Assembly (NCBI GenBank): GCA_964016885.1
Contig: OZ024740.1
Location: 322,648,001-322,712,000, forward strand
Origin: Eledone cirrhosa
Taxonomy: Eukaryota
Length of the DNA: 64,000 nt
Direction of reading: 5' to 3'
Positions 4,503 to 45,100 of this stretch are shown in pieces. A program made the position numbers and the translations under genes. Position 1 is the first letter of the stretch. Every line of letters starts with the position of its first letter. Below the pieces are notes generated by a model. The model searched no databases, was not told the origin of the DNA, and worked only from the letters and a program-made list of their open reading frames with translations.

Positions 4503-4904
4503 TAGTAATATGTGCTTACGGCGTATTTGACTAAATAGAATTAGTCTGTTAGTTGGGATTAAAAAAACCCCTCTGAATGGAAAAAGAAAAGGATGAGTAT
4601 TGAAGTACATGGGACACGAACCCACATCTTTGGCTTTTCCGGACCAATGTGTTATTACTACACCAACACGCCACCCATGTTTCCGTCCATATATATATAT
4701 ATATCCGCTATGGTTATATAGCTTCTAATTGAATGGAAGGAAGCATGGGTGGCGGGTTGGTGTAATGGTAATACACCAAAGATGTGGGTTCGTGTCCCAT
4801 GTACGTCAATACTCATCCTTTTTTTCCATTTAGAGGGCCTTTTAAAATCCCTACTAACAGACTGATTCTATGTAGTCAAATACGGCGTAAGCACATATTA
4901 CTAC
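4503..4904. repeat. Inverted repeat (arms ~4503-4680 and ~4744-4904) containing a tRNA-like segment
   Basis: The arms are reverse complements. The right arm has A-box-like TGGTGTAATGG and B-box-like GGTTCGTGTCCC. Confidence 0.7.
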
Positions 4905-18676: not shown

Positions 18677-18853
18677 AGGCGGTGGATTGGCAGTATCGGT
18701 AGAGGGCCGCAAAGAGTTACGGCCCTTTCCATTCTGAGTTCAAATCCCGCCTTTCAAGATTAACTTTGCCTTTCATCCTTACGGGGTCGATAAAATAAAG
18801 TACCAGTAATACACTGGGTAACTGCTGGCCTTGTGCCAAAAGTAGAAACAACT
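18677..18853 (+). mobile_element. SINE family A copy
   Basis: Matches the family A consensus. Confidence 0.8.
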
Positions 18854-18979: not shown

Positions 18980-19303
18980 CAATGTTTATACATTTGCACA
19001 ATTTCAAACCGATTCGACTCAATGTCTGTAAGAAGGTTGTAAATGGTCTAACTTAGGTCAACGACTATTTATTTCATTCAAACTCACCCACAATTACGGA
19101 AATAATCGATAAAACTAAATACATGACGCTTTACCCTCTAATACAATCAGATTACCTCTCTCTACTCCCCTTCATCAGAGAAAGTTGCAGCATGTATGTA
19201 GTTTTATCGAATATAAACATGGAATATGCACACACACACAGCAACAACAATCTGCCTTTTATAGATAATGATGATGATGATGATGATGATTAAACTTACA
19301 AAC

Positions 19304-19341
<38 letters not shown>

Positions 19342-19959
19342 TTTGTTTTTGAATGTGGAACGGTCAAACATTAATTTACTTCAATGACAAAGAGAACTTA
19401 TTACATTTCATACGAAACAACAATTATTCAAAAGCAACATATAAATTTATTCAACAACAAAAAAAATAGCGATAAATCTTTTTTAAAACATCTATCAACG
19501 AACGTGGAAGAAAGAAGTATCAGTTCATTTACTAGACACAATAATATCCTCTATGAGGTCACTAAACCTGCTAGAAACAGCAGCTAACTCTCCCCTCCAT
19601 ATCACACCACTCCCTACTGTCTTAAATTTAGAAAACATATCCTCTATGAGGTCAATAAACCTGCTAGAAACAGCAGCTAACTCTCCCCCATATCACACCC
19701 CTCCCTACTGTCTTAAATTTAGAAAACACACATTAGACAACCATGCAGAACAACTCCATCGCAGCTCTGTTGTTCGGCTGGCATCGTCTACGCGCGTGTT
19801 GCGCAAGTACTGTGAAACAATAAATTTCAACACTTCTTTGCACAGAGATAATATCCATAGACGAAACTACAATTGTCACTGCTGGCGCAGCTCCTGCTTC
19901 GGCAGTCCAGGTCTGCAATTCATTCACCCAGTGCCTGGCAGACAAAAAAGTGGTGCCAT

Positions 19960-20026
19960 AAAATGGGTGGTGCAACCTAACTTTGGTAACTTACTGACCC
20001 CGAGCAACGCCGAGCTTTAATGCTAG
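19960..20026 (+). mobile_element. Helitron-like 3' terminus
   Basis: Subterminal imperfect hairpin CCCGAGCAACGCCGAG followed ~8 nt later by CTAG|T, as in rolling-circle element ends. Confidence 0.55.
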
Positions 20027-20071
20027 TATATATATATATATCTATCTATTATATAACCCCCCCCCCCACAC

Positions 20072-20152
<81 letters not shown>

Positions 20153-20399
20153 ATAGATAACGAGGAATCAGTGATGCATCAAACCCAAATTTATTAACAT
20201 ATGTAATATGTTTCTCCGACGATCAACTCAAGGGAGGATCTATTATAGATCGAACCTAACTCTGCATTCGCAAGGTCCTCAGATATGTTTATCGTTTTCA
20301 AGGCATTTCAACCGATTCAGACGGCATACCCGCCCACGGTATATATTGCCACCTTAAAACAACTATATATATATATATATATAGAAGTGGTTACACAAC

Positions 20400-22101
20400 A
20401 GTTAGTTCACCATACCGAGAACAATTGTTTCACCTTAGCGGATCTTCAGCTCGGGATGGGCATGGTTATAGGAACAGGACGGACAACCGTACGAACGCGC
20501 ATGCGCAGAAACTCGGTCACTTCACACAGGCAATACTAGACTGCGTGCGAGAGGTGTAAGGGAGATAACTGCGAAAGTCCGAAAAGTTTTTAGGTTGAAA
20601 ATAAAATAAAAATACAAAGAATCAGTCCAGAGCTTTGTAGTTATGTAATAGGTGTTTGGCGACGTGTGGACCTCTCGTGTTTAGGCAATCACTATTGCGT
20701 AATCTCTTTAGAATAGTTATTCGTTCGTCAATACATAAGCCACACGTTGGATTTCCCTTTGCGTATGGTTTCGACTTAGTGATGGCTTTCCATTGGATGG
20801 AGTAGTCTGTACTTGAGTCCTTGAGGGACCATACGTGGCTCGCGAGTTTCGTGGATGAACGTCTGTCCGGGTATCTGAAGGTAGACTGGTGGTTCAGGAA
20901 ACGTTCCTTGAATTGGCCTCCGCCATGCTCACATAGGATTTGACCTCCTGTGGTTCGTTTGGTCGGTTGGAAGTGACCACAGCTTCATAGATTACAGCTG
21001 GTGTGTTGCATTGCTGTTGAAGGGGGAAAGCTTCAGGCTTACTGCAAGAGCACCCTGGTGGGGTGTTGCGCCTAGGGGTGCTGGTGATGTGGGCCTTCAT
21101 GTTCTTAGCGCAGGAGTATCCTAGTTTAACTTTGTGTCGGTTAAAGATATGGCGGTATTTATGATCTATGGGGAAGTGTCTATCTAAGAGGGCTAGACAT
21201 TTTTTTCCTACATTGGTTTTTACGTTGAGTGAGAAGGGAGGAGAGAACCAGATAGTTTGTCTATTGCTGCGCTTACTTTTCTTAAAGGTGTTGTTGCTAG
21301 TGGGAGAGTATGTGATAGGTTGTGAGAAGCCGCTGTTAGCCAACGCCGTGTTATAATAGGGTGCCGCCCTGTCAAAGATAGCCTTATTAGAGGAGAGGTT
21401 TGAGATTCTAGTACTGATATTCTTAACGAAGTTTCTAAAAACAGTAGGAGGGTGGCATGAGTCCTTGTGGATGTAATTAAGTTTCTCGTTTAGCTTGTGG
21501 AAGGGCCTGTGGGTGTGTGTGTGCGAAGGTCTAAATTAATGTCTAAGAAATCTACGTTAGAGAGGTTGGTGGCTACTGTTATCCTAAGGCCTAACTCATT
21601 GAAAGTAGAAGCTAAGTCTTTTTTAAACCGGTCGAGGTCGTGACCACTTTTATAGCTCGATAAAGTCAGGCCATCGTCACGGTATATTCCCGTGTGGAAG
21701 TCCGGGAATCTAACACGTAATATGTCTAAGATAAAATGGCCAACCAAGTCGCATACGTCAGCACTGTCAAACGATCCCATGGAGACGTCGAACAGCTCTG
21801 AAGATGTAGACTTCTTTGCCCAGGCTACTCCGTCGTTAAAGAGGAGGGTTTTCCGGCAGTGAGCGATGATTTCCCTGTCTAAACCATCGACGGTGGTATA
21901 AGTGGTAGCGACGTCCAACGCTTTGTTTAACAGGGTCTCTGAGATCGACAGATAAAAACCAACAATGTCGAACTGTGTGAACTTCGCTTTTTTGGATTTG
22001 AAGGAGTTGAACCACTTAATTATGGAGTCGCTGTTCTCCCACTGGGGCAGGTTGGACTTGGTCCTAATGGTCTTAACTATGTTTCTAAGTATGGCCTTAC
22101 T

Positions 22102-22104
<3 letters not shown>
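20400..22104 (-). mobile_element. Penelope-like element 1 (5'-truncated, frameshifted RT plus GIY-YIG)
   Basis: ORF 21490-21918 has FDVSMGSFDSADVCDLVG, GIYRDDGL and VDFLDINLDL. ORF 20894-21343 has IWFSPPFS..VKTNVGK and VIYEAVV...SYV (a degenerate GIY-YIG). Confidence 0.9.
20410..20459 (-). ncRNA. Minimal type I hammerhead ribozyme in the 3' region of PLE 1
   Basis: Minus strand reads CCAUcCCGAG-CUGAAGA-UCC GCUAA GGU-GAAAC AAUU GUU-CUCGGuAUGG, giving a 10-bp helix I with one mismatch and a palindromic helix III (ACAAUUGU). Confidence 0.8.
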
Positions 22105-22146
<42 letters not shown>

Positions 22147-22158
22147 TATGGCCTTACT

Positions 22159-22201
<43 letters not shown>

Positions 22202-22213
22202 TATGGCCTTACT

Positions 22214-22439
<226 letters not shown>

Positions 22440-22502
22440 ATATATATATGTGTATATATGTATATATATATGTATATATGTATATATGTATATATATGTA
22501 TA

Positions 22503-23603
<1,101 letters not shown>

Positions 23604-25939
23604 TTACCGTGCTCCTTTTGTAGAGCATCTCACCTTATTTGCCATTATGTTGGAGAACAACTCGTTACCCATGTCTCTCAAGTGTATCCCCTTACCCAGC
23701 AGAAAAAACCTACCTTAAACTGCTTATAGACGCTACTAATTCGTTTATACGGAGAGTCAGATGGAAGGCCTACCACCTGGATAAGAACACCCGTAACCTT
23801 CCTGAACCCAAAAAGAAGTATGGCTTCAAAACATACCGAAACCCACCGCACAACACCTTACTGGACTCCTTTGAAGAGGACCTGCTGAAAATGATCAAAA
23901 ACGTTAAGCTCAGAAAGAAACACCAATGCAGCAATCCATTCTTAACGTCCCTTGATACACTAATAACTAAGATCAAGAATGACCCGCACCTCTTCATCAC
24001 CTCCGACAAAACCAAAAAGCTGTACAAGATGGACGCGAGTGAGTATAAAAAATTCATCTATAAGGAATTACACTAGACTACAAAAAGACACCCTCTAGTA
24101 CCCTAAATGACATAAATAGAGTAGGGAAGGATATAGTCACCAGCTTAGAAATAGAAAAGTACACTAACCCATATGTCCCTCTGACGCCTAAATTCTCTCT
24201 TAAGGATCACAAATATGACTTTAATGAAAGCCCCTCTATTAGACTAATATGCCCCTCTACATCAGATATAGGTAAGATTAGTAAAGTGATCCTCGACAGA
24301 GTACTACTCGAGCTTAATAGAAAGGCTAAGGTCTGCCTCTGGGGCAACACCGACCAGGTCATAAAATGGTTCACCGAGTTGCCGGATAAAGCCACCCTGA
24401 AATTCATCCAGTTTGATATAGATAGCTACTACGCCTCTATCTCCCCCATACTCTTAAATAAGGCACTTATCTTAGCTAGATCTAACACTAGCCTCACTAA
24501 AAAAGAAATAGACATAATTCTAGCGGCACGTAGAACCATTATCCAGTTTGAAGGCTCCCACTGGACCAGAACTAACCGTCCTGATAACTTCGATGTCACG
24601 ATGGGGTCCAGTGACTCAGCGCAAGCAACTGACCTGGTCGGGATATACCTCCTACATAAGCTTAGGGAAGAAATACCGGCCCTACAAGGAGGTGTATATA
24701 GGGACGACGCCCTGTTTACCGTTAGGAACCATAGTCCCCGTAGGATAGAGAACCTTAACAAACATATACACAGGTTCTTTAAGTCATACGGCTTATCCGT
24801 AACTATGGACCTCAACCACAGGGTTGTCAACTTCCTGGACGTGACCCTGGAGTTGAGTACGGGCTTATACAAGCCATACCATAAGCCTGGAGAGTGCCTC
24901 TCTTATATTAATTATGCCTCCAACCACCCTAAGCAGACTCTCAACTCCATAGTCTATAGTATCTCACATAGAATCTCGAGGCTATCCGCCAATGAGGATA
25001 TCTTCAACCAAGCGGCTGATTACTACAATAGGGCCCTGATAAGCGCCGGCTTTAACCGAGGAATTTCCTACATCCCTAACGCTAGCTCTAGAAACCCTCC
25101 CTCATAAAACTAACGTTATAGTAAGCCATACCTATAACCGATCACGCGGCGACCTCGTTGAAGTCGGATATAATAGAATAGATAACCGCACCAAAGATCA
25201 CGTCCCCGGCGACGGTGAACACTGTAGATTACTCAAACTATTCCCCTATTACAAAACCAACAAAGGCGACGGCCTACTACCAACGCCTTCCAACCAACAT
25301 CTTCGTGTACATAAACATGGAAGAGGTAGAAAGAGTGCACCCGAGCATAAAGTGAAAGGGGCACCGAACGGGCGACTGCGCATTAACACACATAAGAGCG
25401 GTCACTTAGATGGAACCACCCGTAGCAAAAGTACAAGGACACGTAATCACCACCGTAACGTCCTATGGTTCCACCCCCCTACTCTCGGAGTGTGGCCTCC
25501 AACATACCCCGGATGTTCTTCGAAGCCTTAGAGAAGAACTTCCCGCCCAACCATAGGTATAGAAAAATTCTTAATAGGAACAATATAAAAATATCCTTCT
25601 CTACTACTCCTAAACTAGCAGACATCATAGGAACAACGAACCACAGTAAGATCACCAAGACACAGCACCTCGACACAGACGCACCTACACCTGACAATAA
25701 CTATATCGGCCTTAACAACTCCCTGGCAGCATCCAATAGTGTTGGCAACGGCATCCGCAGACGCAACCAGAATAACCGCGAAATGACTGGGGAACATGCA
25801 GAACATGACGTGCGGAATAACAATCGCACCACCCCGCGTGCTGTGGGTTGTAATTGTGCTAACGACAGCTGCGGTAGCGTAGGTAACAACGTAGGCAGCA
25901 ACAATGATAGCCTTACCGTAGGAAATAGACGGAACCGCG

Positions 25940-26928
25940 ACAGAAATTGCAACTGCCGCGACAGAGGACGCTGCCCCCTTAGAGGATACTGCTTGACTGA
26001 TAGGGTTATATATAGATGCACTATTACTAGCCACAATAGCGTTAAACATTATATAGGGGCCACCTCCGGCCCGTTCAAAATTAGGTTTCGAACACATCTC
26101 CACTCTTTCACAAATAGAAAACTAAGGCACTCCACCTCGCTCGCGGACTACATCACATCACTAAAGGACTTAAACATCAGCTTCTCCACGCACTGGGAGA
26201 TTGTTGGCAGGGCTGCACCGTACAACTTCAAGAGGAAATGCGATCTTTGCCTCATGGAGCTCTACCACATCATAACTGCACCCCACGAGCTCATCAACAG
26301 CAGAGCTGAAACAGCGATAAGTTGTACACATCGCTTAAACATATCCTTCTTCAGATGGGTTAAGGATGAAGAGTGAAATAGTACACTGGATCTCCCTGCA
26401 ACAAGTCTTAACACCCCGGCGGGCAGGCGCTGCAAAATAACACCCAGGAAACAATCCTTGCATACCAGACCCAGCCTCAGACAAACGGATGCGGCAAAAA
26501 AAAAAAAAAAAAAAAAAAAATTGTCCGGGAAAGACTGCCCTAACACCGGCCAGAGTTACCTCCCTTGACCTGCTGCAAAATCAAAACAAGATATTTTTGC
26601 GAGCAATGAACCTTGATGTGGATTTAACCCCAAAAACTCTTTCCGAGCAATATAAGGAACACTTGTGATTATTTATGCCCTTGAGAAGCCCAACTGGGCG
26701 AAACGTATGTAGGTGATATTTTAAATAAACATGTTTTAACGGTCTATTCTCCGATTTTTTACTTTCCTACGTGCTTACGCTCTGCTAACTCTCTAGCCCA
26801 CTAAATATTAACACTTCGAATATTTAATACTGCCGGCACTAGTATCGAGCACCTTTGGCATACGCTACTTGGCAAATAACTATATGTATCACCTATCCCC
26901 CCTTTTTTTCTCTTTCTCGATACGTAAA

Positions 26929-26935
<7 letters not shown>
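25940..26935 (+). repeat. 3' pseudo-LTR of PLE 2
   Basis: Direct repeat of 22612-23603. Confidence 0.93.
26674..26719 (+). ncRNA. Minimal hammerhead ribozyme, U3-A8 core variant (pseudo-LTR copy 2)
   Basis: CC-UUGAGAA-GCCC AACU GGGC-GAAAC GUAU GUA-GG. Confidence 0.7.
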
Positions 26936-27018
<83 letters not shown>

Positions 27019-27343
27019 ACGTAAATACATATATGTATACAGACGTACAGTAGTATGTATATATATATACATACATGCACACATATATATACATGTACGT
27101 ATGGATTCACCGAACATTTATTATAATGCTCGGTGTGTTTGTAAACAAACATCCCGTATTAAGCCGTAGTGTCTAGCAACCATCGTTGCTCGTTTGTTCA
27201 ACACTGACAAAGGAACGCTGTACTAGTTTATCCGTTTATCGTTTTCGGTGCACCCGGCCGATTAACCCACTCGATATGCAAATTGGGCTACTCAGCCGTT
27301 AATATGCATAAGGAAAGTATATACTTTCAGACGTTCAATCATC

Positions 27344-27410
27344 TGGCAGGAAGGTATACGTTGCTGACGATAGCTAATAAGCTTGAAACTAGTACAGCGT
27401 TCCTTTGTCA
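27344..27410 (+). ncRNA. Type I hammerhead ribozyme (unit 1)
   Basis: CGUUG-CUGACGA-U AGCU AAUA AGCU U-GAAAC UA GUA-CAGCG with a canonical core. Helix I extends through UGGCAGGAAGG/CCUUUGUCA. Confidence 0.85.
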
Positions 27411-27773
27411 GTGTTGAACAAACGAGCAACGATGGTTGCTAGACACTACGGCTTAATACGGGATGTTTGTTTACAAACACACCGAGCATTATAATAAATG
27501 TTCGGTGAATCCATACGTACATGTATATATATGTGTGCATGTATGTATATATATATACATATAACTGTACGTCTGTATACATATATGTATGTACGTATAC
27601 ATACTTATATTTAAGCAACAGCCGTACTAAGTGTGGGAAATGAAATTTCGTTTCATATTTACCGTTTATCGTTTTCGGTGAACCCGGCCGATTAACCCAC
27701 TCGATATGCAAATTGGGCTACTCAACCGTTAATATGCATAAGGAAAGTATATACTTTCAGACGTTCAATCATC

Positions 27774-27840
27774 TGGCAGGAAGGTATACGTTGCTGACGA
27801 TAGCTAATAAGCTTGAAACTAGTACATCGTTATTTTGTCA
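27774..27840 (+). ncRNA. Type I hammerhead ribozyme (unit 2; helix I partly mutated)
   Basis: Same core, helix II and helix III; the 3' strand is CAUCG instead of CAGCG. Confidence 0.75.
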
Positions 27841-28089
27841 GTGTTGAACAAACGAGCAACGATGGTTGCTAGACACTACGGCTTAATACGGGATGTTTGT
27901 TTACAAACACACCAAGCATTATAATAAATGTTCGGTGAATCCATACGTACATATATATATGTGCATGTATGTATATATATATACATACTACTGTACGTCT
28001 GTATACATATATGTATGTACGTATACATACTTATATTTAAGTAACAGCCGTACTAAGAGTGGGAAATGAAATTTCGTTTCAATTTTTCC

Positions 28090-28125
<36 letters not shown>

Positions 28126-42136: not shown

Positions 42137-45100
42137 ATGGTTGTGTTAAGAGTAGGTTGTCTAAATGCGCGTGGCTTGGGCTCACCTTGGAAGCAAGCTA
42201 AACTTCTAAATGACCTCAGGTCACGAGGTATAAATGTGATGGTTATTTGCGAGGCAGGATCAGCAGCGTGCAACAACTAGCCCCCACCTTTGATGACTCT
42301 GTCAGCTCGGAGGTGGGGGTGGGGTTGTCGTTCTGCTGCAAAAACATCTGGGCCTCGCTACACAGACGGTACACTTAGACCCGGAGGGTCGACTAGTGGT
42401 TCTGGACATTGGCAGTGGTGAAGGAAAAGCTTTTAGGCTAGTCGCCGTTTACGCCCCTTTTGGGGCAATGCGGTCGGACTTCTTCCATCGTCTGGAGACT
42501 TTTCTAGGGACGTCCCGCTCCTTGCTTTTAGTGGGGGACTGGAATGGTATCTTAGATGCACGTTGGGACTATGTAGGGGCATGTCCCGATAGAGGGGGGT
42601 GTAACAACCTCAAGGGGTTAATCGGCCGATTTGACCTGGCCGATAGATATCGACTAGATTTTCCGACTGTGCCAACCTGGACTTGGACAAACCACAGCGG
42701 TCAATCTAGATCGTACCTAGATAGGTTCTTAGTTAGAATTAAGGATAGGGACTTTTTAAGTTGTCCAGAAATGCTCATGGTGGGCTATTCAGACCAAAAG
42801 TTAGTGACCTGCGTAGTCCACCTTGATAGAACGCATAGGCAGAGACCCGGTTACTGGAAGCTCAACTTGTCCTTACCGGCAAGTAGAGCTTACAGGGACC
42901 GGATTAGAACCTTAGTTAAGGAGCGGTTGATCGGTGCCATCGTCAACAGCAGGTGGTGGGGCTCTCTGAAAAGAGAGATTAAAGTAGTTTCAATAGGAGT
43001 TAGTAAGGAGTTAGCCTCAGATAGAAATAGGAAGGAAAGGGAGTTGGTAGTTAATGTTGAAGAGGCAATGAGAAGCGGAAACGTGGCCAGAGTGCAAGCG
43101 TCGAGAACGGCCTTGAGCCAGTTCTTCGACGCGAAACACGAAGGCTGCGTTGTCCGAAGCAAAATACGTGCTCTGGGAAACGAGGGGACCAAAGCTGTTA
43201 GCTGGGTCCGCGTGACAGAAGCCAAAAGTGGGATTAGATCCACTATCCGGTCTTTGCAAAACCAGGATGGACGGGTGATCCTTGAACCTAAGCAAATGTG
43301 CGAGACCTTTCAAAGGCACTTTTCCCGATTGTTCGGGAGGGGCGGGGGGCCGGTTGGAGATGTGGATTTCGGTCCATACCTCGACGGCCTGCCGCGTCTT
43401 TCAGACAAGGAGGCGAGGTCCTGCGACGGGCCGATCTCAGCTGCTGAAATAGGGGACGTGCTGAGCCTATGCGGCAAACGCAAATCTCCAGGGGTCGATG
43501 GTCTGCCCTACGAACTATATATTAATATGCCGGACTTGTTCCCCGATCTCCTCGAGGCGGTCTACTGCGACTGGCAACAGAACGGGAGAATTCCCTGTTC
43601 TGTGACCAAGGGCGTAGTCTCACTAGTGAGGAAGGACGAGAACAAGGGGGATGACATTAGTAATTTTAGGCCCATAACTCTGCTAAATGCAGAGTTAAAG
43701 ATTTTGGCCAAGGTGTTAGCGAAGAGGTTGTGCTTGTCGTGGGGGGCCTGGTGGGAGATGCGCAGACATGCGCTATCCCGTCCAGGTCCATCCACGACAA
43801 CCTCCACCTCATGCGATACATCATAGAGGGGGTTGGGAACGAACCCGGCTTTGGTGGGGCCCTGATAAATGTAGATCAGTCTAAAACTTTCGATAGGATG
43901 GACCTGGATGCGGTGCTAGCGGCGACTGGTTTCGGACCCGTTTTCAGGGGCTGGATCACTGCCATGCACAGCAGCCGCATCTGCTCTAGAGTCAAGGTGA
44001 ACGGCTACCTCTCGGAGCCGTTCGAAATCACCCGCTCCATCCGACAGGGGTGCCCTCTCTCCTCCCTTCTGTATGTATTGGCTCTCGAGCCACTACTGCG
44101 GAAGTTGGAGTTGTTGCAGGGCATCCCTTTGGAACCGGGATTGCGCAAAGCGGTGTCGGCCTACGCCGATGACGTAACAGTAATGGTGTCGACCACCGCG
44201 GAAATCGAGGCAATCGGCACCTTACTGGAGGAGTACGAAAGGTTGACAGGGGCTAAGCTGAACCGGGACAAGTCAGTCGCTTTGCAACTCGGCGAGTGGA
44301 GGGGCAAACCGATGTCGTCCGACAGTATCGTCGGACGGTGGACGGAGGGCCCGGTGAAGTTGCTTGGGGTCTGGTTCGGACCGGACCTCCAGGTGGAGAA
44401 AAACTGGGGTGAAGTGACAAATAGGGTGCTTGCACTGACCCAGAAGTGGGCCGAGTGCAAACTATCCCTGAAAGGTCGGGCGGAGGTGGCGAACGCTTAC
44501 ATAGCGTCCGTCATCTATTACCGCTTGACTGTCGTGCCTTGCCTGGGTGAGATCCTCTCTTTGGAGCGCGCTCTCTTTCACTTCCTTTGGAAGAAGAGGT
44601 CTCCCCTGGTGAGGAGATCCATTTGCTGTCAACACCCTTTGAAAGGAGGGCTGGGGATGCCGTGGCTAAAAATGCGTAAACACGCATTGAGGCTACGGCA
44701 CCTCCAGGTATTCCTCACCGGTCAACCGGTGTGGGCCCTGTTTGTGAGACGAGACTTCGAGAGGTTCGTCTCGCTCACCGAGCTGCAGTCCTGGGTGAAG
44801 CAAAGACCGAGAAAACCGTCGCGCACGCATTGGTATACTGCACGGGCGTTACCGATCTGTGGGGCTATGTCGAACAACTGCTGTCACGGGTGAGACCAAT
44901 TAGGTTGACCACCGAGTCCATTGTAACGACCAAGCCGCCCCCCTTCAAAAATGAAGGAGAGGCGGTCTTCCTCTATGTAATAGCCATGGTAAAAGAGGTT
45001 GTATGGTGGACGCGTCTAAAAGGGCTGAGGTCGGACACCTTTTTTTCCGGCCAACAACTGGTCCTTTTCTTCCGATACCATTTCGGAAGAAGGATCAGGA

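Follow-up and report, generated by a model that had tools for sequence, protein, structure and literature searches.

A type I hammerhead motif lies at 20410–20459 on the minus strand of the 64,000-nucleotide stretch of Eledone cirrhosa DNA analysed here (the window). In what we regard as the most probable reading, at roughly three chances in four, it belongs to the 3′ pseudo-LTR of a broken copy of a Hydra-clade Penelope-like element (PLE) and forms a slow ribozyme, which likely cuts only with the help of a second copy or of the element's protein. The motif itself is real, and self-cleavage is predicted from its sequence. It is apparently under selection, and it belongs to a Hydra-clade PLE family that lies outside the printed Hydra rows, although its U·U mismatch, its GUU triplet and its palindrome are known traits of that clade.

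On re-reading of the window, the minus-strand sequence that the sequence-only reading had quoted for 20410–20459 proved to be letter for letter as claimed, and the motif was recovered by direct reading, by a descriptor scan and by a core pattern; with an alternative distal helix it extends over 20409–20466. All 12 consensus core positions are present (C3 U4 G5 A6 N7 G8 A9, G12 A13 A14 A15.1 and U16.1 H17, with U as H17), and three helices are arranged round the core with the chain ends in stem I: a proximal stem I of 5 bp, a stem II of 2 bp and a stem III of 2 bp. The catalytic box C3–A9 spans 20443–20449 in the descriptor scan, with C3 at 20449, and N7 (20445) is the sole core position that varies between subfamilies. 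Stem II (20432–20442) consists of a U10.1 (20442)·U11.1 (20432) mismatch, where the usual G10.1–C11.1 pair is absent, and two C–G pairs with a 5-nt loop, the length and sequence of which vary in relatives. G12–A15.1 (20431–20428), stem III (20429–20420) and the cleavage triplet together fill 20420–20431. The palindromic helix III and the GUU triplet of the earlier claim are both there: the 10-nt stem III segment before the cut site is a perfect palindrome, and the descriptor scan of both strands gives N17 as the U at 20420, with the predicted cut between 20420 and 20419. The 5′ strand of proximal stem I (20450–20454) pairs with 20419–20415. All these parts are on the minus strand. We do not hold the U·U mismatch to be disqualifying, since it is a natural, tolerated variant among the hammerheads described in PMC3088659 and PMC7229834. 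Taking the U after A9 as an 'extra nucleotide' followed by a normal 10.1–11.1 pair was rejected, because a C is then left opposite a U.

The covariance-model check suggested for this motif came back empty, with no Rfam hammerhead match at E≤10 in 19000–22000. Across the whole window, there was no hammerhead among the 150 matches listed of 319, the other four window hammerheads included, and those listed were microsatellite-driven microRNA matches and one tRNA-like match only. Nor does the isolated 50-mer stand out from its shuffles in folding (z −1.0). It is thus the core and comparison, not folding energy, that carry the case.

The host insertion covers 20384–22104 on the minus strand and is 92% identical to bases 866–2620 of a complete 2.57-kb unit elsewhere in the genome (L231). 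As had been proposed, the hammerhead sits in the tail of this minus-strand PLE, ~175 nt past the stop codon of its broken ORF. The remnant of that ORF, which combines RT and GIY-YIG regions, was delimited at 20622–22095 (minus strand) by tblastn with a natural 587-aa copy, to which it is 83–93% identical in three frames; it is 5′-truncated, with frame changes near 21515 and 20920 and a small C-terminal deletion. The 36-nt segment after the cut site (20384–20419, minus strand) represents the short class of element end and adjoins (TA)n at 20364–20383. At the 5′ break of the PLE, within 22086–22218, a stretch of ~20 bp occurs three times, with (TA)n between the repeats. Two complete copies (L230 and L231) are partial tandems in which two hammerheads flank the ORF at a distance from each other of 2,572 and 2,577 bp, respectively, and the ATG of complete units lies 259 nt downstream of the upstream cut site. 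Features of the dimer type are thus seen in the palindromic short stem III and in the two copies per tandem unit; the window insertion has one. Because it has no partner hammerhead of its own family and its ORF is dead, the window copy is probably a passive relic. Elsewhere in the genome, the 3′ part of the same family forms a tandem array with a period of ~1.33 kb (C10:17,950,699–17,962,927; L283, L284), and the two hammerheads inspected in that array both have core mutations.

Natural copies of the element show DKT, YRDD, a CxCX5C linker, CxxC, CxH, a C-terminal GIY-YIG-like region and (TA)n flanks, in a unit of <3 kb with a single ORF for RT and endonuclease and a partial tandem or inverted pLTR structure. 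Section 11 of PMC8557442 lists DKT, CxCX5C, CxxC, CxH, the C-terminal endonuclease, a length of <3 kb and (TA)n insertion as features of the Hydra clade. The N-terminal Hydra motif RWK reads RWR at the equivalent place, and in a by-eye comparison the protein is much like the sequence printed for Hydra-1_Obim. On these motifs, and on comparison by eye with printed proteins rather than on a tree, we assign the element to the Hydra clade; the Naiad clade is ruled out, the endonuclease being C-terminal. Pfam returned no family for the window's PLE fragments, and a protein search with the natural ORF copy gave 430 relatives, the best of them 46% identical, with no informative names among the 120 listed.

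Other copies of the family, in which the sequence-only reading looked for conservation, run into the thousands, and the constrained core is kept in two subfamilies. The family pattern of the 20410–20459 hammerhead has 5,596 genomic matches (control 0), and a 26-mer directly downstream of the cut site has 6,477 (control 0); a DNA search for the family returned 1,951 candidates, 40 of which were scored. Since the family pattern itself required the core, core conservation in copies found with it was left out of the evidence. Two divergent subfamilies (seed locus against window copy: 82% and 77% identity) were fetched by 3′ UTR DNA that excluded the ribozyme; 21 and 23 loci, of 25 each, could be used. 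At 26 of 140 and 34 of 129 upstream positions (19–26%), the subfamily's majority letter is not the one in the window copy, a divergence inflated by a poorly alignable segment and by the window copy's private mutations. There are 0 differences at the 20 positions of the constrained core and stems II and III and none in proximal stem I, and changes within the ribozyme are limited to N7, loop 2, loop 3 and the stem I bulge. In the two subfamilies, U10.1 is retained in 20/21 and 23/23 copies and U11.1 in 20/21 and 21/23. Separately, 88 copies were picked by the downstream 26-mer alone, and 31 were long enough upstream to tally. They have seven polymorphic sites ≤47 nt upstream of the cut, namely N7, one base of loop 2, three bulge bases, the terminal stem I pair and a G/A opposite U; five of the seven are in the 12 unpaired positions (p = 0.008, with positions classed after the data had been seen). 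An unchanged constrained core downstream of a region that is 19–26% divergent points to selection. The 26 nt after the cut site are conserved equally with the core, and protein binding or priming, rather than catalysis, may account for some of the conservation.

The genomic record at the cut site bears on the role of PLE hammerheads without settling it. Measured from the cut site in 88 copies sampled on C1, the 5′ junction is ≤3 nt away in 2, at 0–15 nt in 6 and beyond 390 nt in 12, while in at least 29 copies (17 long arms and 12 short) it falls 16–33 nt upstream, inside the ribozyme; values at 34–35 nt are partly artefacts of subfamily divergence. At least 82 of the 88 run >15 nt across the cut site. 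Among 30 copies with a 5′ UTR, 21 reach 49–1,215 nt upstream through the ribozyme, 1 starts at −4 and 8 start downstream. Two discrete 3′ ends, at +34/+36 (31/88) and at +100 to +102 (31/88), leave a tail of 66–68 nt between them. Inverted pairs (n=71) have one long and one short arm in 51 cases, two long arms in 4 and two short arms in 0, with 16 undetermined. This record says that templates are mostly continuous across the cut site, as uncut linear tandems or re-ligated circles. No sign is seen of cleavage that sets the 5′ ends of insertions, as in R2. Microhomology at short palindromes could explain the crowding of junctions inside the ribozyme. An origin of the two inverted arms in separate RNA molecules, held together through the palindrome, is unsupported, as most of the 71 pairs agree by eye; rare variants are shared in L030, L214, L220, L238 and L251, and the few discordant pairs include L207 and L217. 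The arms may be separate transcripts of one source locus. That the genome shows little sign of cutting agrees with a ribozyme that is slow and is assisted by dimer formation or protein, like the published one of an anole PLE. In that element, RT was found in vitro to start at two internal sites, cleavage was assisted by protein, and the template was predominantly RNA that had not been cut (PMC11167929).

The same record can be read in another way, namely that the motif keeps the hammerhead shape without useful cutting and persists because the retrotransposition machinery uses it as a structure for binding, dimerisation or pausing. Insertion ends that do not pile up at the cut site and fall more often within the ribozyme than within 15 nt of the cut would agree with such a structure, as would the combination of three weakening features with a predicted misfold, and insertion in vitro is not abolished by catalytic mutation of the ribozyme in the anole PLE (PMC11167929). 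We nevertheless think it unlikely, because the catalytic residues are invariant and N7 is free, which is the pattern expected under selection on a catalytic core, and because natural hammerheads with U·U and a 2-bp stem II are known, the axolotl one having been measured as active (PMC3088659, PMC7229834).

The predicted misfold concerns stem I. The 'long helix I' of the sequence-only reading stands in its proximal 4–5 bp, which are conserved, but its distal part is one of two registers and is not conserved. The register given at the time is paired at 9/10 positions; in the second, the strand 20466–20461 pairs with 20414–20409 and a 6-nt bulge is left. Computed energies of the two are similar (−9.3 and −8.4 kcal/mol), and so is their comparative support, covariation counts for neither distal register being above shuffles. 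Double-sided covariation was 0 in any stem among 17 aligned copies, the 3′ strands of which barely vary. The addition of at least 7 upstream bases lowers the predicted probability of pair 1.1–2.1 from 0.9 to 0.03 or less; in the best predicted fold the distal helix is extended and proximal stem I is broken in the monomer. This prediction takes no account of tertiary contacts.

It is very unlikely that the motif acts efficiently as a monomer and defines the RNA ends of the element as a matter of routine, in the way that HDV-like ribozymes do in R2. Such a role would be in keeping with the predicted stem I probability of ~0.9 for the isolated 50–60-mer and with the single copy out of 30 that starts 4 nt from the cut site. 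Against it are the copies that cross the cut site, the description of metazoan PLE hammerheads as having low or no activity as single motifs (PMC4209133), and stem III, the hairpin of which is computed to be unfavourable in the monomer (+2.4 kcal/mol). Two molecules joined via stem III form an 8-bp duplex (−6.4), and a double hammerhead has a computed energy of −29.8 kcal/mol, ~11 kcal/mol better than the −18.6 of two monomers; a misfolded dimer is lower still (−42.4). An unstable monomeric stem III together with a favoured double hammerhead matches the dimer model for PLE hammerheads (PMC4209133; reviewed in PMC6765202).

It is thus the slow, assisted ribozyme that we prefer, and the following sequence of events can be proposed for it. 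In a tandem transcript, two ribozymes would pair via their palindromic stem III, and the cut rate would be kept low by the U·U mismatch, the 2-bp stem II, U17 and the competing helix. The template of most new insertions would then be RNA that runs unbroken through the cut site, either uncut or re-ligated, and RT may start at one of two sites, 34–36 or ~102 nt downstream of the cut. U17 slows hammerhead cleavage; a literature search for measured cleavage rates with U17 found nothing.

The spread of U10.1·U11.1, which the sequence-only reading suggested as a possible lineage-wide feature, was checked in the genome (3.0 Gb, microsatellite-rich), and the mismatch is indeed widespread. C3–G8 cores with U..U have 58,129 matches (control 381), C3–G8 cores with G..C 13,688 (control 206) and U3–A8 cores with G..C 24,579 (control 323), one family dominating the first 100 listed of the last. 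U·U accounts for ~60% of these 96,396 hammerhead-pattern matches, which together come to one pattern per 31 kb; the total is a pattern count over the three core classes covered, with some places matched twice. At least five U·U families, across PLEs and retrozymes, are found among the first 100 listed matches. Descriptors that demand a 10.1–11.1 pair would skip the U·U form, which is the majority of the ~96,000 pattern matches here. As a novelty, however, the mismatch does not hold up, being already in print for Hydra-clade PLEs, the axolotl retrozyme and other natural hammerheads. Perreault (2011) described natural hammerheads with a stem II that starts with U10.1–U11.1, as well as stems II of two pairs (PMC3088659). 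HHR_Amex2 of the axolotl retrozyme (~60,000 copies) has U·U; its monomer was cleaved to 22% in 1 h, and its dimer to a greater extent (PMC7229834). File S2 of Craig (2021) prints hammerheads for 25 Hydra-clade families (PMC8557442); by our tally of these rows, U after A9 with U before G12 occurs in 14/25 (one row repeating another), U17 in 10/25 and both in 8/25. The Hydra-clade hammerheads are given there as canonical, and in the parts concerned the mismatch passes without comment. A literature search that covered few subscription papers found no census of cephalopod hammerheads. One might speculate that U·U is dominant because slow cutting is selected, the folded ribozyme being a pause or strand-switch station of insertion, but we consider this doubtful.

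The claim of five hammerheads in three unrelated families within 7.5 kb was confirmed by the core pattern (C3–G8 or U3–A8, with U·U or G–C), which matches the window five times, always within 20420–27824: at 20449–20420 (−), 23350–23380 (+), 26681–26711 (+), 27364–27394 (+) and 27794–27824 (+). 'Unrelated', however, holds for the hammerhead sequences, between which no BLAST hit is better than E 0.2, and not for the elements, the RTs of the two window PLEs being 38% identical to each other. The second PLE, a partial tandem with a 997-bp repeat at 22612–26936 (+), contains the two hammerheads with U3–A8 and G10.1–C11.1 (23350–23380 and 26681–26711); Hydra-like motifs are seen in it by eye. A retrozyme-like repeat with a unit of ~430 bp at 27002–28095 (+) consists of two copies and an inverted arm and contains the two U·U hammerheads at 27364–27394 and 27794–27824, so the likeness that had been noted between the 20410–20459 motif and the 27.3-kb ribozyme at positions 10.1 and 11.1 is borne out. 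The core of this repeat has 26,239 genomic matches, and its layout, with an inverted arm and (TA)n flanks, is the same as that of the PLE insertions; it is likely a non-autonomous passenger of a PLE, a retrozyme–PLE link having been argued in bioRxiv 10.64898/2026.07.22.740005. Three further features of the window were seen in passing: a LINE-like element at 42297–44893 (+), with AP-endonuclease (PF03372) and RT (PF00078) in two frames; a tRNA-like Rfam match at 4601–4672 (−; 34.4 bits, above the gathering score); and a segment at ~18680–18850 (+) that resembles, by eye, the head of a tRNA-derived SINE.

As a cluster, the five copies lose their distinction, given one pattern per 31 kb and a like cluster elsewhere in the genome, where three families have five copies within 10.5 kb (C1:2,982,237–2,992,736). 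That the motif is a chance match, or the cluster a special functional locus, is extremely improbable and largely refuted already: the lack of an Rfam match and of any folding excess, and five copies in 7.4 kb where an even spread predicts 0.24 (5 against 2.1 for the whole window), are outweighed by 200 dinucleotide shuffles of the window with a mean of 0.025 hammerheads (maximum 1), by the many genomic copies of every family, and by the make-up of the five copies as three (TA)n-flanked insertions, two of them duplicated, with their counterpart at C1:2.98–2.99 Mb. By itself the 20410–20459 hammerhead is one more PLE hammerhead; what is of use is the scale, with ~96,000 hammerhead-pattern matches in the genome, and the genomic record of the family.

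The Hydra-clade PLE hammerheads of PMC8557442, such as those of Hydra-1_aJap, Hydra-1_cRog and Penelope-2/3/4/5/8/9_HM, share with the present one the position in the 3′ pLTR, the (TA)n targeting, the U·U mismatch and U17 (each in part of the families) and a short self-complementary stem III. Stem II has 2 pairs here and 3–5 in the printed U·U Hydra families; the tail between the two 3′ ends measures 66–68 nt, compared with the 30–40 bp described for PLEs. The family is absent from the printed Hydra rows of that work, in which the octopus family Hydra-1_oBim has a different hammerhead. HHR_Amex2 (Cervera and de la Pena 2020, PMC7229834) is likewise of type I, with U·U at the base of stem II and a 2-bp stem III with a tetraloop, is present in tens of thousands of copies and is more active as a dimer, but it is located in a non-coding 350-bp tandem repeat and not in an ORF-bearing PLE. 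Its closer analogue is the window's 27.3-kb repeat. Minimal or palindromic PLE hammerheads are reportedly also the subject of work by Lunse et al. in 2017.

The PLE hammerheads of Cervera and de la Pena (2014, PMC4209133) have the pLTR location, the palindromic stem III and the dimer model in common with ours, and several unrelated families per genome are described there, as is the case here. Unlike ours, they are described with a long stem II, a conserved G10.1–C11.1 pair and one additional nucleotide following A9. PAc, a Poseidon element of Anolis (Frangieh et al. 2024, PMC11167929), resembles the present family: it has two ends in AC-rich sequence past the ribozyme, its targets are AT-rich, and its templates run across the cut site without a break. 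It belongs to a different PLE clade, and its ribozyme overlaps the start codon, whereas the ATG follows 259 nt past the cut here. The present family provides independent genomic support, from a second PLE clade, for the two internal RT starts on ribozyme-spanning RNA that were described in vitro.
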